From the sequence record OZ035849: 64,000 nucleotides of DNA; one strand, given 5' to 3'. A program made the translations under genes and the position numbers. Within the stretch, counting starts at the first letter, position 1; every line of letters begins with the position of its first letter. Below, one piece after another: positions 2,781 to 50,918 of the stretch. This DNA is from Escherichia phage vB_Eco_BGP. The notes under the pieces were generated by a model that saw only the letters and a program-made list of their open reading frames with translations, had not been told where the DNA came from and did no database searches.

Positions 2781-5700
2781 TTATTCAACCCATTCAAATT
2801 TAACCGTTTTATTCACTGGGTCAGGAATAATGCGAACATTACCAATTCGTAAGAAATCACGAATAGTAAGATTCCCCATTGTAGCATTATCAGATGGTAA
2901 AGCACCGATATCAGACGGCTGAGGAGGGTTACCTCCATCAAATACCTGAACAAAACTTGACCAAGAGTTTTTGGTTTTCTGCCATGTACGTGTCCAGCGA
3001 GTGGTACGTGCTTCTGGAGTCGTTGGATAAGTAATCCAATCTTGGTAAAGCGAATCAAGTGTGTTACCAAACTGAGTCAATGTACCAGGAGATTTAACTT
3101 CTTCGCCACGTTCTAAGTATGGAAGCCCAGTCACTTCATTAGTTTTTTCAACCATTTTAAAATAACCTGGGAACTGGTTATAAGTAGCTGAATCATTAAT
3201 ATCGATTGACCAGAATCCTACAGTATCAGACGTTGGCGCACGGGTATATAAGTCAGATGTTTTAGTGCCCTGAGAACGAATTCTCGAGTTAACAGTTAAA
3301 CCACCTGAATTTATAGTAGCACCTTTGGCAATGATTAAGCTTTCACCAATCGTTACTTGACCAGATGCATTATTAATAGCTAAAGGACGTAATCCATTAA
3401 ATCCGCCAGTCTGATCACCCGATGCAGTAAGCATAAAATAGGTGTTAGCAGCATCATTGCGAATAAAGAATCCATAGTCGCCATTTATTGCTCTGAAAGC
3501 ATTTGCAGACTTGCTGATGAATTCACCATTAGCAGTAACTGAACTACCAAATGTTGCAACGCCGTTCGCATTCAAAGAACCCGAAGCATTAACATTTATT
3601 GGCATTACAGTACCATTGATACTAAACGTTATATTCCCAGCTTTATTGCGTTGAGAATAAAAGTGATTAGACGTTTCATCACCAACTTCAAATACAGTAG
3701 AACGCATTGTATCTGAACCGCCACCAAACTGATTTCCCCAAACTCTGATAGTCATCGTCTGCGCTGGGTTAGTTCCAGTTTGAGGTCCTTTCTCAAAAAT
3801 CAGACGAGTTGCCGTTCCAGTATTAGAAATAGTTAATGTGCTGTTTGCCGAAACTGATCCGCCAAACGTAGCAGTACTAGATGATACAAGAGGGGCACTC
3901 AGATTCGTTTGTTGAGTTAAGGTTAGTGAACCATTAACTGTCTGTGCAATATCCCTACGAATGAACTGAGATGAATCTAGACCATCCAATAAATTTGTAT
4001 CAGCAGCTTTTGCTTTTAATGGCAAATAATTTGCTAATACACGGTTTAATTCATATGGTGATACTGCATAGCTGTTTTTCTCGTATAGCTCTAAGTCCTG
4101 CGTAGAACCAGCTGTATCATTACCAACGAATGTAATTGAACCAGATGAAGTTTTAACAAAGCCTCTTATCGCAGTAGTAGCTGCCCAAGTAGGTTCACTC
4201 TGCACAATCCATTTTAAATTTTTTGGAGATACAGCAGTATTTGCTGATGTTCCAGTCACAGTTTCAGACTGAGTTGCAACTTTAATAACACCTTCTTGCG
4301 ATTCGGTAGATTTAGTACCTAAAAGCTTTTTAGGAGTTATTAAAACATTATCTAATGTTCCTGCAGCAGCTTCAACCTGTGTAGCTACACGAAGTGTACC
4401 ACGCTGTGTCTCATTTGCTTCAAGAATATTAAGGGTATAATGGTCCCAGAGAGTTCCTGATTCAACTAATCCAGATAGAGCAACAACAGAAGTACGATCA
4501 GTACTATTAAATCTAGTTTTAATTTTTAATGGTGTAGAGATACGAGTATCGTCGACGCCTGCGTCGAATTCAACTTGTGTAGCAATTTCAGCTATACCAC
4601 TTAAACTTTCAGTTGCTCTACGGTCATTTAAAGTTTTAGGAGTGACTGCACGAGTATAATCAGTTCCTGTATTAACTTCACTTTGTGTAGCAATTTCAAT
4701 TAAACCAATTCTTCCATCAGTTGATGTCTTTTTATGTAACGTTTCTGGCGTTACAACAGCATTTGCCCATCCTTCCTGACTTTGTCCAGCAATTACTTCA
4801 CTTTCAACTGCTAAAATTACTGCACCTTGCTGTGTTGGAGTAGCTTTATACTGATCCAAAGCTTTAGGTGAAACAACTAAATTATTAGTGTTTTTATTAT
4901 AAACATTCGTACCATTTAATTCACGACTAGAAGCTGGAGTAGCACCTGCAGTAGATACAAAAGTTACAATACCAGATAATGATTCAGAACCTTGGCGAGC
5001 TTGAAGCTTTTTAGGAGTGATGATTGTAGTATCATCAGTACCTGTATTAGTTTCCTGCTGCGTAGCAATTTCAGCAACACCTCTACGAGTTTCTGTAGCA
5101 GTTCTTTCATTCAGCTTTTTAGGAGTAATGATAAGGTCATCTGCAAAAGAGAATGTGGTGTTCTGATTCACTTGAGCAGTAGTTGCTATTCTTGCGATAC
5201 CTCTACGAGTTTCAGTAGCAGTACGATTAGCTAATGTTTCTGGAGTAATTGCTAATTCTTTTTGTGGAGAATTTTCTAAATCGACATTAGCTTGAGCTTG
5301 TGTAGCTAAAGCAATTACGCCTAATCTTGCTCTAGTAGAATCATTTAAAGAGTCTACTCTTTCTACAGTTGGAACGTTTTGCTGTACAACCCAGTATTTT
5401 CCATCAGAATCTTCTATATAAGCAAGCTGTAAAACTGGAACATAATTAGTTTCACCGTTAAAAACTAATTCTTGAACAGTTACCCATTTAGTTTCAGGCG
5501 GATATTCTGAACGTTTTGGGAATTGCAGCAATTGAACTGAAGAAGCAATTTTATCTTCGCCCGCAGCTTTGATTTTAACTGTTTGTCCTTTTCTCATGTA
5601 ATTCATGGAAATTTTAACAGTATCACCAACAGAAATATTAGTTGGAAGCTGAAGCTCAATTGTTTGAGTTGTTCCGTTATTCGCACCAAATACCATGACT

Positions 5701-10344: not shown

Positions 10345-10710
10345 ATGTATATTGATAAAAAGTACGAACTTGTTCCAAGACTTATTGATACATTTATTAA
10401 TTATCGCCCGCGTTCTAATTCATTAATAGTTAAAGCTATTCAAGAAAATGGCGGATGGTTTGAAGTTAAAGAAGTTTTCTTTGCTGATGGATTTAAAGTA
10501 GTAAAACACGTAGAATGCGCCAATAGAAAGCATTTTTACTTCAACGTCTGCGAAGATGAATTTCATTGTTTTCGTGAGTATAAAGAACCGACTTCTGAAG
10601 AAGATGAAGTCAAAGACAAGGTTTCTGGCGTAACAAAAATTCACTGCATTGTTGACGAAAACAATGTAGATGAAATCATTGAACTTTTGCGAAAAACTTT
10701 CAAAAAGTAG
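10345..10710 (+). CDS. hypothetical protein (frd-region small ORF)
   Basis: 121 aa ORF with SD GAGGA 8 nt upstream. Confidence 0.7.
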   Translation: MYIDKKYELVPRLIDTFINYRPRSNSLIVKAIQENGGWFEVKEVFFADGFKVVKHVECANRKHFYFNVCEDEFHCFREYKEPTSEEDEVKDKVSGVTKIHCIVDENNVDEIIELLRKTFKK

Positions 10711-19510: not shown

Positions 19511-21098
<1,588 letters not shown>

Positions 21099-21101
21099 GC
21101 T

Positions 21102-21155
21102 GTTTACAAGTCCCTCGTGTTGTGTTATAGTAGTCTTACTGACATAACATGAGGA
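21102..21155 (+). promoter_or_regulatory. early promoter cassette, copy 1 of a 54-bp exact repeat
   Basis: gtttac -35, 17-nt spacer, tatagt -10, imperfect stem-loop, SD gagga; identical 54 nt at 35377-35430. Confidence 0.7.
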
Positions 21156-21162
21156 CTTTATG

Positions 21163-21666
21163 ATGGATTTACAACTTATTACTACTGAAATGGTCGTTGA
21201 AGCATACGGTGATACTACAGATGGGATTTCTGTATTCAAAGGAAATCGTCGAGTTGGATATATCACCGATCTTAAGAAAGATTTAGCTAAGCAAGTCAAG
21301 CGGAAAACGACCATTAAAGAATATCGAAATCGTCGTCTTGAGCAAGCCCGTGATATGCTTCCTGATGCGGTTGAAGAGATGAAAGTCTTTTTAGAAAATC
21401 AACTCGCTAAGTATGATTGTGAAGTGTTCATTAATCAGACTCAACCTAATGTTCATATCAATAGCTGTAAATGCTATATCATCGTTAATCCTTTAACGGG
21501 AAAACATCGTCTTGGAATTAGTAATCCAAATCGTAGCGCATCGGATATGGCAGAAGATGTTGAGGCATGCTTTAAAATTTCTAAATCTCCGGCTGAACAT
21601 CATATTTTAATTAACGGTCTTTCTCAAGACGATATTATAGAGGTTATTAAAACTTTATGCAATTAA
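21163..21666 (+). CDS. alc: Alc, host transcription unfolding/termination protein
   Basis: MDLQLITTEMVVEAYGDTTDGISVFKGNRRVGY..., 167 aa as T4 Alc; ORF track starts one Met earlier at 21160. Confidence 0.92.
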   Translation: MDLQLITTEMVVEAYGDTTDGISVFKGNRRVGYITDLKKDLAKQVKRKTTIKEYRNRRLEQARDMLPDAVEEMKVFLENQLAKYDCEVFINQTQPNVHINSCKCYIIVNPLTGKHRLGISNPNRSASDMAEDVEACFKISKSPAEHHILINGLSQDDIIEVIKTLCN

Positions 21667-28096: not shown

Positions 28097-28176
28097 TTTT
28101 CCAAAGATTGCATAAAGTTGTTTACAGTATGGTTCCTTTGTGATAGTATTATCTTACACAAACAAAGGAGAATAAA

Positions 28177-28509
28177 ATGAAAACGATTAATCTGAACGCT
28201 ACAGTTAAAACTAAATGCTTCAATGGTAAATATGATGAAACTATGTGGTTCTTAATGGCAGTTGAAGGTGATATCATTGAAGTAGAAACAACAGAAGGTA
28301 TGGGAACAGATTTCACCTTTACAATTCAAGTTCATAATTTCTTTACTGGTTGGATTTATGAATTGAATACAGTAATCGTTGGAAAAATTGAACAAAATGA
28401 ATTAGGTGAATGGTATTATGTTACAGCTCGCCAACGTGCCGAACGCTTAATTGAGAAGATGAAAAAAGTTGGTAAACTTGACATGCAGCATTGGAAAGTA
28501 GTAAAATAA
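28177..28509 (+). CDS. hypothetical protein
   Basis: 110 aa ORF, SD AAGGAG, preceded by early-promoter-like gtttac...tagtat. Confidence 0.7.
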   Translation: MKTINLNATVKTKCFNGKYDETMWFLMAVEGDIIEVETTEGMGTDFTFTIQVHNFFTGWIYELNTVIVGKIEQNELGEWYYVTARQRAERLIEKMKKVGKLDMQHWKVVK

Positions 28510-32919: not shown

Positions 32920-35016
32920 ATGATGGAACTAATTACAGAATTATTTGACGAAGATACTACTCTTCCGATTACAAACTTAAATCCAAAGAAGAAAATACCA
33001 CAAATTTTTTCAGTTCATGTTGATGATGCAATTGAACAACCAGGCTTTCGTTTATGTACCTATACATCTGGAGGTGATACTAATCGTGATTTAAAGATGG
33101 GCGATAAAATGATGCATATTGTTCCTTTTACATTAACCGCTAAAGGTTCAATTGCTAAATTGAAAGGTCTTGGTCCAAGCCCAATTAATTATATCAATTC
33201 GGTTTTTACTGTTGCAATGCAAACAATGCGTCAGTATAAAATTGATGCCTGTATGCTCCGTATTCTTAAGTCTAAAACTGCTGGTCAAGCTCGACAAATT
33301 CAAGTTATTGCTGATAGACTTATCCGTAGTCGTTCAGGTGGCAGATACGTCCTTCTTAAGGAACTCTGGGATTATGATAAAAAGTATGCATATATTCTTA
33401 TACATCGCAAAAATGTATCACTAGAAGACATTCCAGGGGTTCCGGAAATTAGTACCGAGCTCTTTACTAAAGTTGAATCGAAGGTCGGTGATGTTTATAT
33501 CAATAAAGATACTGGAGCTCAAGTAACTAAAAATGAGGCAATTGCAGCATCTATTGCACAAGAAAATGATAAACGTTCTGACCAAGCTGTAATCGTTAAA
33601 GTTAAAATTTCCCGTAGAGCAATTGCACAAAGTCAATCATTAGAGTCTTCTAGATTTGAAAGTGAATTATTCCAGAAGTATGAATCTACAGCAGCTAATT
33701 TTAATAAACCAGCTACTGCACCTTTAATTCCCGAAGCAGAAGAAATGAAAATTGGAATTAATTCATTAGCTTCTAAAACTAAGGCAGCAAAAATCATTGC
33801 CGAAGGAACTGCAGATGAACTTCATTATGACTATAAATTCTTTTCAAAAAGTGAGGTTAATGAAGTTTCTGAAAAAATTAAAGATGTAATTCTTAATGCG
33901 ATTAAAAATGAACCGACTACTTCAATAAAATGTTTAGAGAAATACGCAGCAGCTGTTAATCAATTATTTGAAGAATATAAAGATACTTGGCTTGATAAAC
34001 ATAATAAAACCCGTAAAGGACAGCCAGATGAAGTCTGGGAAGAAATAACTAAAAATTCCTGGAACGCGACAAAAACTAAATTCCTCAAAAGAATGATTTA
34101 TAGTTTCTCTGGAATTGGTGCAGGTCCAATGATTGATATTACTATTGCCCGTGATGGTTCTAAATATACTCCATCACAAAAGCGTGGCATTAGAGAGTAT
34201 TGCGGTTCAGGATATACTGACATCAATAATCTTCTTTTGGGTCGTTATGATCCAGAACGTTATGAAGTAATGAGTGAAAAAGAAATTGAAGCTGCTATAA
34301 CTAATTTAGATTCTGCTTTTGAAAATGGTGATCGTATACCAGAAGGCATTACAGTTTATCGTGCTCAAAGTATGACTGCTCCTATATACGAAGCACTAGT
34401 TAAAAATAAAGTATTCTATTTCAGAAATTTTGTATCTACTTCTTTAACTCCTATCATTTTTGGACGTTTTGGAATTACACATGCTGGTATTGGTCTTTTA
34501 GAACCAGAAGCTCGCAATGAATTAACAGTTGATAAAAATGAAGAAGGAATAACTATTAATCCAAACGAAATAAGAGCGTATAAAGAAAATCCTGAATACG
34601 TTAAAGTTCAAATAGGATGGGCAATTGATGGAGCTCATAAAGTTAATGTTGTATATCCAGGAAGTCTCGGAATAGCAACAGAAGCTGAAGTTATTCTACC
34701 GCGTGGATTGATGGTCAAAGTTAATAAAATAACTGATGCTTCTAATAATGACGGAACAACATCTAATAATACAAAACTCATTCAAGCTGAAGTTATGACC
34801 ACGGAAGAGCTCACCGAATCGGTAATCTATGATGGAGACCATTTAATGGAAACTGGTGAATTGGTTGCAATGACAGGTGATATTGAAATAGAAGACAGAG
34901 TTGACTTTGCATCATTTGTTTCATCAAACGTTAAACAGAAAGTAGAATCATCTCTTGGAATTATTGCGTCTTGCATAGATATTACAAACATGCCTTACAA
35001 GTTCGTTCAAGGATAA
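32920..35016 (+). CDS. alt: Alt, capsid-packaged ADP-ribosyltransferase
   Basis: 698 aa; ART motifs in order R (VYRAQSM), STS (FVSTSLT), E-x-E (ATEAEVILP); N-terminus MMELITELF...; T4 Alt is ~682 aa. Confidence 0.92.
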   Translation: MMELITELFDEDTTLPITNLNPKKKIPQIFSVHVDDAIEQPGFRLCTYTSGGDTNRDLKMGDKMMHIVPFTLTAKGSIAKLKGLGPSPINYINSVFTVAMQTMRQYKIDACMLRILKSKTAGQARQIQVIADRLIRSRSGGRYVLLKELWDYDKKYAYILIHRKNVSLEDIPGVPEISTELFTKVESKVGDVYINKDTGAQVTKNEAIAASIAQENDKRSDQAVIVKVKISRRAIAQSQSLESSRFESELFQKYESTAANFNKPATAPLIPEAEEMKIGINSLASKTKAAKIIAEGTADELHYDYKFFSKSEVNEVSEKIKDVILNAIKNEPTTSIKCLEKYAAAVNQLFEEYKDTWLDKHNKTRKGQPDEVWEEITKNSWNATKTKFLKRMIYSFSGIGAGPMIDITIARDGSKYTPSQKRGIREYCGSGYTDINNLLLGRYDPERYEVMSEKEIEAAITNLDSAFENGDRIPEGITVYRAQSMTAPIYEALVKNKVFYFRNFVSTSLTPIIFGRFGITHAGIGLLEPEARNELTVDKNEEGITINPNEIRAYKENPEYVKVQIGWAIDGAHKVNVVYPGSLGIATEAEVILPRGLMVKVNKITDASNNDGTTSNNTKLIQAEVMTTEELTESVIYDGDHLMETGELVAMTGDIEIEDRVDFASFVSSNVKQKVESSLGIIASCIDITNMPYKFVQG

Positions 35017-35019
35017 ATC

Positions 35020-35405
35020 ATGGAACTTATTACAGAATTATTTGACGGCGCTTCGGCGCCGGTTGTTAACTTAAATCCTAAGCATAAAATACCTCAAATT
35101 TTTGCTATTCAAGCCGGTGAAGAAAGCGTACTTCCTGGATTTAGATTTTGTACATACACCTCTGACGGTGATACAAATAAAACGTTAAACCAGGCGATAA
35201 AATGATGCATATCGTAATGATAGGTGTTAATGAGAAACTATCATTAGTTAAGCTTAAAAACTTGAGTGGAAATCCAATTGGTGTCATTAATGCTGTTTTT
35301 GATACTGCTCTTCAAACAATGAAACAGTATAAAATCGACGCATGCCTATTCCGCGTACTAAAAAGTTCAAAATGTAGTTTACAAGTCCCTCGTGTTGTGT
35401 TATAG
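35020..35405 (+). pseudogene. partial tandem duplicate of the alt N-terminus, split into two overlapping ORFs (61 and 67 aa)
   Basis: MELITELFDG...PGFRFCTYTSDGDTN and MMHIV...QTMKQYKIDACLFRVLKS parallel Alt residues 1-125; frames joined by ATGA overlap; 3' end runs into the promoter repeat. Confidence 0.6.
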
Positions 35406-35430
35406 TAGTCTTACTGACATAACATGAGGA
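35377..35430 (+). promoter_or_regulatory. early promoter cassette, copy 2 of the 54-bp exact repeat
   Basis: Identical to 21102-21155 over 54 nt (gtttacaagtccctcgtgttgtgttatagtagtcttactgacataacatgagga). Confidence 0.7.
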
Positions 35431-35437
35431 ACACAAA

Positions 35438-35728
35438 ATGAAATCTTCTTTACGCTTTTTAGGTCAAGAACTTGTAGTTGAAGGCGTTATTCCTGCTGAT
35501 AATGCTTTTAACGAAGCGGTTTACGATGAATTTATTAAAATTTTTGGAACAGATAAAAAGTTCGGAATTTTTCCTTCTGAAAATTTTTCAAAGCCAGAAC
35601 AGACTGAAAGTATTTTTCAGGGTGTAGTAACAGGTAAATTTGAGTCAGAAGCTCCGGTAAAAATTGAAGTTTATATTGAAGACAGTTTAGTTGCTTCAGT
35701 TTCTGCTTTCATTTCATTCCGCAAATAA
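35438..35728 (+). CDS. hypothetical protein
   Basis: 96 aa ORF driven by promoter cassette copy 2; followed by bidirectional terminator. Confidence 0.65.
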   Translation: MKSSLRFLGQELVVEGVIPADNAFNEAVYDEFIKIFGTDKKFGIFPSENFSKPEQTESIFQGVVTGKFESEAPVKIEVYIEDSLVASVSAFISFRK

Positions 35729-35734
35729 AAATAT

Positions 35735-35752
35735 GGGGACCGAAAGGTCCCC
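35735..35752. terminator. bidirectional GC hairpin terminator between the plus-strand early block and gene 54
   Basis: ggggaccgaaaggtcccc perfect hairpin with T-runs on both sides. Confidence 0.75.
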
Positions 35753-35756
35753 GTTG

Positions 35757-46534: not shown

Positions 46535-47953
46535 ATGACTTTTACAGTTGATATAACTCCTAAAACACCTACTGGAGTTATAGATCAGACTCAGCAGTTT
46601 ACTGCTACACCCAGTGGTCAAACTGGAGATGGACCTATTACATATGCTTGGACTGTAGACGACGCTCCACAGGAAGAAACGTCAGCAACTTTTAGTTATG
46701 TACTAAAAGGACCTGCCGGTCAAAAGACTATTAAAGTAGTTGCAACCAATCAAGTTGCAGAATCTGAACCTGAAACAGCTGAAATTAGTACAACTATCAC
46801 AGTTCAAAATAAAACTCAGTCAACTACGTTGGCAGTAACTCCTGGTAGCCCTGATGCTGGAGTGATTGGAACCCCAGTTCAATTTACCGCTGCCTTAGCT
46901 TCACAGCCATCAGGTGCAAACGCTACGTATCAATGGCACGTTGACGGTTCTCCTGTAGACGAAGCAACTGACGCTACATTCAATTACACTCCTGACACAA
47001 GCGGAGTTAAAAAAATCAAGTGTGTAGCTCAAGTAACTGCGGCAGATTATGATACACTAAGCGTTACTTCTAATGAAGTATCACTGACTGTTAATAAAAA
47101 GACGCAGACGACTACTTTGGCAGTAACTCCTGATAGTCCTCCAGCAGGAGTAATTGGAACCCCAGTTCAATTTACTGCTGCCTTAGCTTCGCAGCCGCTA
47201 GGAGCATCTGCTACGTATCAGTGGTATGTAGATGATTCACAAGTTGGTGGAGAAACTACTACTACATTTAACTATACTCCTACCACAGTTGGAGCTAAAA
47301 CAGTTAAGTGTGTAGCGCAAGTAACTGCAGAAAATTACAATGAAAAGGAAGTTACTTCTAATGAAGTATCATTAACAGTTAATAAGAAAACAATGAATCC
47401 ACGGGTTACATTGACTCCTCCTTCTATTAACGTTCAGCAAGATGCTTCGGCTACATTTACTGCTAATGTTACGGATGCTCCAGAAGAAGCACAAATCGAA
47501 TATTCATGGAAGAAAGATTCTTCTCCAGTAGAAGGGTCAACTAATGTATACACTGTTGATACATCATCTATTGGAAGTCAAACTATTGAAGTTACTGCAA
47601 CTGTTACTGCTACTGATTATGATAGCAAAACTATCACAGCAGAAGGTCAAGTTCAGGTAACTGATAAAGTTGCTCCAGAACCAGAAGGTGAATTGCCTTA
47701 TGTTCATCCTCTTCCACATCGCACTTCAGCTTACATCTGGTGCGGTTGGTGGGTTATGGATGAAATCCAAAAAATGACTGAAGAAGGTAAAGATTGGAAA
47801 ACTGAAGATCCAGATAGTAAATACTACCTGCATCGTTACACTCTTCAGAAGATGATGAAAGACTATCCAGAAGTTGATGTCCAAGAATCGCGTAATGGAT
47901 ACATCATTCATAAAACTGCTTTAGAAACTGGTATCATCTATACCTATCCATAA
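46535..47953 (+). CDS. hoc: Hoc outer capsid decoration protein, extended form with an extra Ig-like domain
   Basis: 472 aa (T4 Hoc ~376 aa); N- and C-terminal sequences as T4 Hoc; internal 96-aa Ig-like unit present twice in tandem. Confidence 0.92.
   Translation: MTFTVDITPKTPTGVIDQTQQFTATPSGQTGDGPITYAWTVDDAPQEETSATFSYVLKGPAGQKTIKVVATNQVAESEPETAEISTTITVQNKTQSTTLAVTPGSPDAGVIGTPVQFTAALASQPSGANATYQWHVDGSPVDEATDATFNYTPDTSGVKKIKCVAQVTAADYDTLSVTSNEVSLTVNKKTQTTTLAVTPDSPPAGVIGTPVQFTAALASQPLGASATYQWYVDDSQVGGETTTTFNYTPTTVGAKTVKCVAQVTAENYNEKEVTSNEVSLTVNKKTMNPRVTLTPPSINVQQDASATFTANVTDAPEEAQIEYSWKKDSSPVEGSTNVYTVDTSSIGSQTIEVTATVTATDYDSKTITAEGQVQVTDKVAPEPEGELPYVHPLPHRTSAYIWCGWWVMDEIQKMTEEGKDWKTEDPDSKYYLHRYTLQKMMKDYPEVDVQESRNGYIIHKTALETGIIYTYP
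46811..47386 (+). repeat. tandem duplication (2 x 288 bp) inside hoc encoding two copies of an Ig-like domain
   Basis: ttggcagtaactcct... recurs with a 288-nt period (46829 and 47117); encoded units QTTTLAVTP...EVSLTVNKKT ~75-80% identical. Confidence 0.85.
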
Positions 47954-49544: not shown

Positions 49545-49560
49545 GGGACCGAAAGGTCCC
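49545..49560. terminator. bidirectional GC hairpin between rnlB and gene 24
   Basis: gggaccgaaaggtccc perfect hairpin between convergent genes. Confidence 0.7.
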
Positions 49561-50902: not shown

Positions 50903-50918
50903 GGGACCCGAAGGTCCC
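50903..50918 (-). terminator. GC hairpin after gene 23
   Basis: gggacccgaaggtccc hairpin just downstream of gene 23 stop on the minus strand. Confidence 0.6.

Follow-up and report, generated by a model that had tools for sequence, protein, structure and literature searches.

An early-promoter and leader-hairpin cassette carried upstream of alc and alt.-3 in a T4-like coliphage

In Escherichia phage vB_Eco_BGP (sequence record OZ035849), the 54-nt sequence GTTTACAAGTCCCTCGTGTTGTGTTATAGTAGTCTTACTGACATAACATGAGGA stands upstream of two genes 14 kb apart, alc, which encodes an inhibitor of host transcription, and alt.-3. How did one promoter and leader come to serve two genes, and what is the role of the hairpin that they encode? 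A first reading of the DNA (here called the original prediction) took the perfect identity of the two copies as a sign of recent copying by a mobile promoter and stem-loop cassette. In the account favored here, to which we assign a probability of roughly 60%, the sequence is an alc leader module with a covarying hairpin, which was copied to alt.-3 at the base of the genus Tequatrovirus and whose Shine-Dalgarno (SD) sequence would be hidden in read-through RNA. All positions refer to the whole stretch of 64,000 nt that was analyzed, termed the window.

The repeated sequence and its predicted hairpin

In agreement with the original prediction, the window contains exactly two copies of the 54-mer, both on the + strand (21102-21155 and 35377-35430) and matching at 54/54 positions, and flank alignment showed that the identity breaks off sharply at both ends. 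No third copy within 3 mismatches was found in the window (0/100 dinucleotide shuffles gave any match), and a repeat scan of the whole window turned up no further dispersed repeat of comparable length and exactness. Pairwise comparison of the eight early-promoter-like cassettes in the window gave 54/54 for this pair, 39/54 for the next best pair and a median of 26/54. The statement that the other early promoters share only the hexamers was thus roughly right for the sequence, but the hairpin architecture is common to them. The 40 nt upstream are 75% A+T at copy 1 and 60% at copy 2, the A/T-rich upstream region lying outside the repeated unit.

Promoter scan and RNA folding also bore out the composition of each copy as an early promoter, a stem-loop and an SD sequence. 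In the numbering of the 54-mer, the -35 element TTTACA occupies nt 2-7, the TG dinucleotide nt 22-23, the -10 element TATAGT nt 25-30 and the SD sequence GAGGA nt 50-54; both sites scored 10/12 as TTTACA-17-TATAGT with TG. The location of the -10 element predicts a transcription start near A37, 3' of the 5' arm of the hairpin. In the folded RNA, nt 12-25 pair with nt 40-53 over 14 bp, including three G.U pairs, beyond which lie a bulge of 2 nt and an apical stem of 4 bp (28-31/36-39). The 5' arm consists of promoter spacer and extended -10 element and the 3' arm of the 5' untranslated region (22 nt) including the SD sequence, and the predicted start falls inside the hairpin. The stem-loop had been described as imperfect, which understates a stability of -22 kcal/mol (z = -5.4) that was reached by 0/200 shuffles. 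The sense strand folds at -22.0 kcal/mol versus -12.8 kcal/mol for the antisense strand, and DNA parameters give just -9.6 kcal/mol; this asymmetry, together with the weak DNA fold, points to a structure of the sense-strand RNA.

In silico, the SD sequence had a probability of being unpaired of 0.00 in read-through RNA, for both copies and at all lengths tried, and of about 0.5-0.7 in RNA from the cassette's own promoter. RNA starting at nt 36-38 was left with a local structure of -1.8 (alc) or -2.2 kcal/mol (alt.-3). Transcription from the own early promoter would begin at about nt 37, inside the hairpin, and yield an mRNA without the 5' arm and with an open SD sequence. Read-through transcripts, from rnlA at one locus and from the late alt gene and its paralog at the other, would hold both arms, fold the SD sequence into the -22 kcal/mol helix and be poorly translated. 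From this model we infer that the hairpin restricts synthesis of Alc and Alt.-3 to RNA from their own early promoter, so that it would end when early promoters are shut off. Substrates for such read-through plausibly exist, because in T4 rnlA RNA is early and alt is late, while alc and alt.-3 are early at both the RNA and the protein level (PMC9697503).

No intrinsic terminator was called at either copy, and no U-tract follows them (the downstream sequence is CTTTATGA or ACACAAAA); the same scan called genuine terminators nearby, at 35733-35754, 28069 and 32868. A scan with Rfam 15 at the gathering threshold gave 0 matches across the whole 64-kb window. Explanations of the hairpin as a terminator or as a member of a known Rfam family were rejected on the basis of these two scans. 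It was also found that the terminator-like hairpins at 35733-35754, 49545-49560 and 50903-50918 have the core GGGACCGAAAGGTCCC in common.

Leaders of alc and alt.-3 across T-even lineages

The comparison covered 11 outgroup lineages, made up of gene 31-region loci from IMG/VR (assigned names by means of a concatenated alc query) as well as RB69 and VR5. The rnlA-alc and alt-alt.-3 junctions were syntenic in every outgroup lineage containing them. The same alc leader design was found in JS98 and VR5 (Dhakavirus), STML-198 (S16-like), CF1, Moon and Merlin, CBH8, Marfa and the metagenomic locus L026: GTTTACA overlaps an upstream stop codon or directly adjoins it, and the SD region has its complement in the spacer. 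The paired arms themselves differ by lineage (TCTCCTCAT/ATGAGGAGA, TCTCCGTTT/AAACGGAGA, TCTCCATTTGGTT/AACCAAATGGAGA, TCCTCATTTCGTT/AACGAAATGAGGA and CCTCGTTTGTT/AACAAACGAGG), the T4 5' arm CCTCGTGTTGT being recognizably related to the Marfa/L026 alc arm CCTCGTTTGTT.

Hairpins were predicted for the alc leaders of 13/15 lineage representatives, with stabilities of -15.6 to -25.4 kcal/mol and z values of -3.9 to -7.3. Alignment of ten alc leaders with MAFFT followed by RNAalifold gave no consensus structure, the arm registers being shifted by 1-3 nt between lineages. Because of these shifts, pairs were tabulated by position in the 5' arm, and in this register-indexed table 8 of about 12 helix columns contained two or more canonical pair types. 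The SD and anti-SD sequences switch jointly between GGAG/CTCC and GAGG/CCTC. An alignment-free test, in which the 5' half of one lineage was joined to the 3' half of another, gave a mean of -20.8 kcal/mol for cognate and -11.2 kcal/mol for non-cognate alc halves, and only the true arrangement among 40,320 permutations reached the observed mean. The same test gave no signal with the outgroup alt.-3 leaders used as a control, where 513/720 permutations were as good. When a covariance model was derived from four alc leaders, both Tequatrovirus copies and the alc leaders of other genera were among its hits, as were antisense matches and other early-promoter cassettes.

At the second junction the outgroups differ. 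Their alt.-3 leaders fold no better than shuffles (z = +0.2 to -1.9), as against z = -6.1 for the T4 alt.-3 leader. Another leader type, GTTTACAACACCACAAGGAYGTGGTA..., stands between alt and alt.-3 in Dhakavirus, Erwinia, Klebsiella and Enterobacter phages, and before alt.-3 in no Tequatrovirus; the type presumed to have been displaced in Tequatrovirus is also designated the ACACCACAAGGATGTGG type.

Judged by these comparisons, the module is native to the rnlA-alc junction, where at least six T-even lineages have kept it as a covarying hairpin. Since the other genera keep the hairpin at alc and have an unstructured leader of another type at alt.-3, the most parsimonious explanation is that the alc module replaced this different leader, 14 kb away, in the Tequatrovirus ancestor. 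The copying proposed in the original prediction stands to this extent, placed at the base of the genus and not in the recent past. Its route was most likely non-reciprocal ectopic recombination (gene conversion) between the alc and alt.-3 leaders, for which the ends common to both leader types, TAGTTTACA on the left and ACATGAGGA on the right, may have served as end points. Since the replacement, both copies have been inherited vertically, with nearly independent drift at the background rate.

The alc leader of VR5 (NC_028881.1; L010 3885-3945, L039) is a chimera, in which a Dhakavirus alc-type 5' arm is joined to 3' 32 nt identical to the phage's own alt.-3 leader; the JS98 alc leader differs from that of VR5 in this 3' part. 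By its sequence, this is a second, independent and partial exchange in the opposite direction, from alt.-3 to alc. The original prediction had further linked cassettes of this kind to modular gene shuffling, but rnlA-alc and alt-alt.-3 are syntenic in every genus examined, and it was the promoter and leader that moved, not the genes.

A reverse exchange in RB69, with an alt.-3-type leader at alc, was considered and dropped; the RB69 leaders are no more alike than its other early promoters, and the spacer hairpin is of a common type.

Several further leaders were recorded. Many Klebsiella T4-like phages carry cassettes 81-84% similar to the Dhakavirus alt.-3 leader at the cef gene, a hint of leader types recurring at unrelated loci. 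A cassette of the type GGTAGGACT...AGTCCTACC lies upstream of alc in the Yersinia phages TG1 and fHe-Yen9-01 (L024 ~4360-4420, L025 4250) and at another locus in JS98, VR5 and the window (L008 8015, L010 7679, window 24427), and this placement suggests that promoter cassettes change loci between genera. VR25-like phages (L016 3640-3804, L017 3655-3819, L018 2966-3130) have a partial duplicate of the alc N-terminus (aa 4-58) just 5' of the full alc gene, and no GTTTAC promoter directly before alc.

The two loci within Tequatrovirus

The window belongs to a close T4 relative within Tequatrovirus, is 98-100% identical to T4-like coliphages (the closest being vB_Eco_Geo, vB_Eco_EL and UoN_LDJ77_1), and is oriented opposite to the standard T4 map. 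Copy 2 follows alt, alt.-1 and alt.-2 and directly precedes alt.-3, after which come a bidirectional terminator and the convergent gene 54. One GenBank record, MT682714, annotates the 30 nt equivalent to the copy 2 promoter as 'promoter'. The features of the two loci are as follows (ORF, open reading frame).

19974..21098, + strand: rnlA (gene 63, RNA ligase 1), upstream of copy 1 and a potential source of read-through; ORF, 98.7% identical to T4 RnlA
21102..21155, + strand: cassette copy 1 (native position), alc early promoter, leader hairpin and SD sequence; exact 54-mer between the rnlA stop (21096-21098) and the alc ATG (21160)
21103..21131, + strand: promoter of copy 1, with -35 TTTACA 21103-21108, 17-nt spacer, TG 21123-21124 and -10 TATAGT 21126-21131; scan score 10/12 with TG
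about A 21138, + strand: predicted start of copy 1, from the promoter position
21113..21154, + strand: hairpin of copy 1, with 5' arm 21113-21126, apical stem 21129-21132/21137-21140 and 3' arm 21141-21154 including SD GAGG 21151-21154; from the fold and covariation across genera
21160..21666, + strand: alc (inhibitor of host transcription), served by copy 1; ORF, 99% identical to T4 Alc
32920..35016, + strand: alt (packaged ADP-ribosyltransferase, late gene), which could read through into copy 2; ORF, T4 annotation
35020..35405, + strand: alt.-1/alt.-2, remnant of a second alt gene; tblastn against Alt and alignment to the intact T6 paralog
35377..35430, + strand: cassette copy 2 (derived position), alc-type promoter and leader before alt.-3; exact 54-mer, outgroup leaders here being different and unstructured
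35378..35406, + strand: promoter of copy 2, with -35 35378-35383, TG 35398-35399 and -10 35401-35406, predicted start about 35413; promoter scan
35388..35429, + strand: hairpin of copy 2, with 5' arm 35388-35401 and 3' arm 35416-35429 including SD GAGG 35426-35429; fold
35438..35728, + strand: alt.-3 (96 aa), served by copy 2; ORF, 99% identical to T4 Alt.-3
35733..35754, both strands: bidirectional intrinsic terminator ending the alt.-3 unit and shared with convergent gene 54; terminator scan of both strands

A blastn search with the 54-mer alone returned 997 places in 499 phage records, which corresponds to two per genome, and the number of records with a T4-like alc region was likewise 499. 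The best copy was perfect in 257 of these records, 95-99% identical in 237 and 90-95% identical in 5. T4 carries a 54/54 copy upstream of alc and a 53/54 copy (G40A) upstream of alt.-3, and T6 likewise has both copies at the two junctions. The flanks were always rnlA and alc or an alt paralog and alt.-3, in every sampled genome and in 10/10 metagenome stretches. A third context for the cassette was found neither in the flank-anchored IMG/VR scans, which gave five Tequatrovirus genomes, nor in the single metagenome scan, which gave those 10 stretches. The same promoters therefore recur in the same places in essentially every sequenced Tequatrovirus; the original prediction had named such identical placement, across all T-even genomes, as an argument for ordinary conservation over recent mobility, and at the level of the genus this is what is seen. 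Across these records the repeat is an ordinary, fixed feature of T4-like coliphages that is present in T4 itself.

Variation within the genus was drawn from about 12 genomes, and drift rates from nine genomes picked partly for divergence. Among the nine, pairwise identity of the 54-mer was 0.956 at alc and 0.934 at alt.-3, versus 0.954-0.969 for the flanking coding DNA. The two copies differ at 1-5 positions in 9/12 genomes having both (0-5 positions overall, mean 2.6), and alc and alt.-3 copies compared across genomes differ by a mean of 3.1. In this sample, each copy drifts almost independently of the other and as fast as the background, which argues against recent copying; the perfect identity in the window is that of two copies which both still carry the consensus sequence.

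The original prediction had also noted that copy 2 abuts a truncated gene duplicate and had regarded this as consistent with insertion. However, a second alt gene (about 685 aa) is intact in T6, KIT03, UFV10, HZ_ZJUN4, GBLB0003 and IMG/VR contig L005, and in all six its TAG stop overlaps G1 of the cassette (GTTTAC). Alignment of the window to T6 showed that 1,699 bp have been deleted within the paralog between two direct repeats of 9 bp, CTAAAAAGT (surviving repeat at 35358-35366), and that a 1-nt loss in the A-run 35179-35182 causes the alt.-1/alt.-2 frameshift. The last codons of the paralog and its TAG stop are preserved at 35367-35377, adjoining the cassette. Since the cassette occupies the same place beside intact paralogs and the deletion is bounded by internal 9-bp repeats, these alignments indicate that the cassette is older than the truncation and is not its cause. 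About 90/503 records appear to share the T4-like truncated arrangement, as estimated from alignment coverage.

That the repeat is a recently mobile early-promoter/stem-loop (PeSL) cassette, inserted in this phage lineage and marking a site of modular gene shuffling, is a reading already largely refuted and hardly credible now. It could draw on the 54/54 identity in the window, on PeSL recombination documented in RB49/phi1 and inferred for PST/T4 (PMC2839356, PMC4122927), and on the variable stretch upstream of copy 2, which is colinear in 90/503 records. It is opposed by the occupation of the same two junctions in 499/499 Tequatrovirus records, by divergence like that of the flanking genes, by flanking synteny in all genera with no third context in IMG/VR or metagenomes, and by the intact paralogs beside the cassette, the truncation being a repeat-mediated internal deletion. 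Alternatively, ongoing gene conversion might keep the copies identical (concerted evolution). Five variant types (C15T, G16A, T27C, G29A and G32A) were found at both loci, for which the hypergeometric P ranges from 0.0025 to 0.10 depending on the number of sites free to vary; UFV10 has the haplotype G29A+G32A at both loci, G16A and T27C are common to the two copies of GBLB0003, and VR5 demonstrates that exchange between the alc and alt.-3 loci can occur. These shared variants suggest occasional conversion or parallel change, and parallel mutation at a few free sites could yield them. With copies that differ in most genomes, nearly as much within a genome (2.6) as between genomes (3.1), and with two window copies that equal the consensus and hence do not call for conversion, we regard concerted evolution as improbable.

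Two other repeated regions were observed in the window. Diverged repeats with a 288-nt period and 76-88% identity lie at 46799-47391, and by T4 map position we take these to be, probably, the immunoglobulin (Ig)-like domain repeats of hoc. Four diverged copies (65-71%) of a 68-nt unit, irregularly spaced by 306, 483 and 120 nt, lie at 4273-5249 and are probably an internal repeat of a coding sequence.

Function of the hairpin and relation to known systems

Several observations weigh against a translational role of the hairpin or against parts of the proposed history. The constant inclusion of the SD sequence is limited to the native alc-type leaders of six lineages: in TG1/fHe-Yen9-01 and PEi20, the hairpin at alc surrounds the -10 element but ends 4-6 nt short of the SD sequence, and the RB69 alc leader has no long hairpin, so SD occlusion is not universal. 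Many other early-promoter cassettes also have hairpins that enclose the -10 element without reaching the SD sequence, and the general role of such hairpins may differ from SD occlusion. Within the genus, transitions at paired sites keep pairing in seven cases and break it in two, against an expectation of 58% kept, so that pair-keeping changes are in slight excess. The start near nt 37 is a prediction, and the own alt.-3 transcript is itself predicted to form a weak 5-bp SD helix (GAGGA/UCUUC, -2.2 kcal/mol). Ribosomes that terminate at the upstream stop codon, only 11-15 nt away from the 5' arm, might unwind part of the helix (translational coupling). The proposed mechanism of copying, gene conversion, and its end points are likewise deduced from the leaders as they stand today.

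The main rival to SD occlusion is a role at the transcript level, in which the hairpin acts as an attenuator or insulator against upstream transcription, or stabilizes the 3' end of the upstream mRNA, with inclusion of the SD sequence being incidental. This corresponds to the 'terminator/attenuator' model for PeSL, and could coexist with a translational role. An RB49 PeSL stem-loop placed between promoter and lacZ lowered expression in a transcriptional fusion (PMC2839356), and hairpins enclosing the -10 element are common and often stop short of the SD sequence (window 10710, 24427 and 28512; TG1 and PEi20 alc leaders). Yet neither copy is followed by a U-tract or called terminator-like, unlike the genuine terminators nearby, and the helix includes the SD sequence in all six native alc-type lineages, where SD and anti-SD switch together; we therefore hold this role to be rather unlikely as the sole explanation. 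A far less probable proposal is that the inverted repeat acts in the DNA, as a protein operator or cruciform that regulates the promoter, for example in early shut-off. The repeat does bracket the -10 element and the start site, and the shut-off mechanism of early promoters has been described as not completely understood (PMC3014915), but from genus to genus the arms are wholly different in sequence and yet remain complementary, a pattern not expected of a sequence-specific protein site, and the three G.U pairs and the strand asymmetry of folding (-22.0 versus -12.8 kcal/mol, and -9.6 with DNA parameters) also speak against it.

The hairpin is not special to alc according to the fold predictions, because z is -2.2 or lower for 6/8 of the window's early-promoter-like cassettes, and the same is found in other genera. 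The window cassettes at 10710, 24427 and 28512 (+) have stems that enclose the -10 element (z = -3.4 to -4.9) and stop short of the SD sequence, an architecture that recurs in RB69, JS98, VR5, VR25 and Marfa. In the cassette at 28120-28176, upstream of ORF 28177-28509 (homolog of T4 30.8), the spacer pairs with its own SD sequence (TTCCTTTG/CAAAGGAG, z = -2.2). Similar cassettes with 11-bp SD-sequestering stems (-21.4 kcal/mol, z of about -6) were seen in CF1, STML-198 and Merlin (L020 12207, L019 11679 and L023 12204); they were matched to the 30.8 cassette by comparable position, and orthology is presumed at most.

A broader and speculative idea, to which we give little more than an outside chance, is that T-even early promoters as a class are self-insulating cassettes, exchanged between loci by gene conversion, whose spacer encodes the complement of the own leader and often of the SD sequence. 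The exchanges that would exemplify it are alc to alt.-3 in Tequatrovirus, alt.-3 to alc in VR5, and the cd-region cassette type at alc in Yersinia phages. If this were true, early genes would be translated only from RNA of their own promoters, and promoter shut-off would end early protein synthesis despite read-through.

For the alc hairpin itself, covariation across at least six genera predicts translational insulation like that of e, soc and I-TevI, tied here to an early promoter. It may represent a testable contribution to the switch-off of early protein synthesis, a step described as not completely understood (PMC3014915). The product of alt.-3 is uncharacterized and dispensable, and mutants with a C-terminal extension of it escape the CmdTAC defense (PMC11618068); in Tequatrovirus this gene would be driven by a borrowed alc promoter. 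The present analysis adds a covarying SD-containing alc leader hairpin with an internal early promoter, the replacement of the alt.-3 leader at the base of Tequatrovirus, and the partial exchange in VR5. No prior description of these three points was found in the searchable literature, which excludes the classical T4 promoter compilations.

Like the T4 'uber' early promoters (UP/-35/TGn/-10; Hinton 2010, PMC2988021), the cassette has GTTTAC, a 17-nt spacer, a TG-extended -10 element and early expression in T4. It differs from them in that the repeat leaves out the A/T-rich upstream region, and in that no other two promoters of the window are nearly identical over all 54 nt.

The T4 genes e, soc, 49 and I-TevI have their SD sequence hidden in long transcripts and are translated from RNA that starts at a promoter located over the 5' strand of the hairpin (PMC3014915). 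The cassette resembles these genes in silico, with an SD sequence buried in RNA initiated upstream (probability unpaired of 0.00 for both copies), an internal promoter predicted to give RNA without the 5' strand, and a structure conserved in related phages. Unlike them, it has no late promoter TATAAATA, which delays their translation; its promoter is an early sigma-70 promoter that would confine translation to the early period. The cassette would work like the e/soc class without being a strict member as published. Neither alc nor alt.-3 is among the published examples of hairpins occluding a ribosome-binding site in the searchable literature, and alc is not mentioned in PMC3014915.

The cassette also has the composite structure of PeSL (PMC2839356, PMC4122927), i.e. 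an intergenic stop codon, early promoter, stem-loop, SD sequence and ATG, is repeated within the genome and appears able to recombine with another copy. Its promoter matches the PST/T4 PeSL form TTTACW-N17-TAYWAT at 11/12 positions. The published PST/T4 stem-loops are drawn just upstream of the promoter (PMC4122927), whereas the stem of the cassette runs from spacer to SD sequence, a position within the placements allowed for RB49/phi1 PeSL (PMC2839356). The replacement of flanking ORFs that is associated with PeSL was not seen: synteny of the flanking genes extends over Tequatrovirus and 10 other lineages, and no indel bounded by the cassette was found, the adjacent deletion in the alt paralog being bounded by 9-bp repeats inside the gene. 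What has been exchanged, in the chimeric VR5 alc leader and in the genus-level replacement at alt.-3, is the cassette itself. These cases suggest that distant loci can exchange promoter and leader modules without the genes themselves moving, which would refine the 'modular shuffling' attributed to PeSL by making the regulatory cassette, and not the ORF, the mobile unit.

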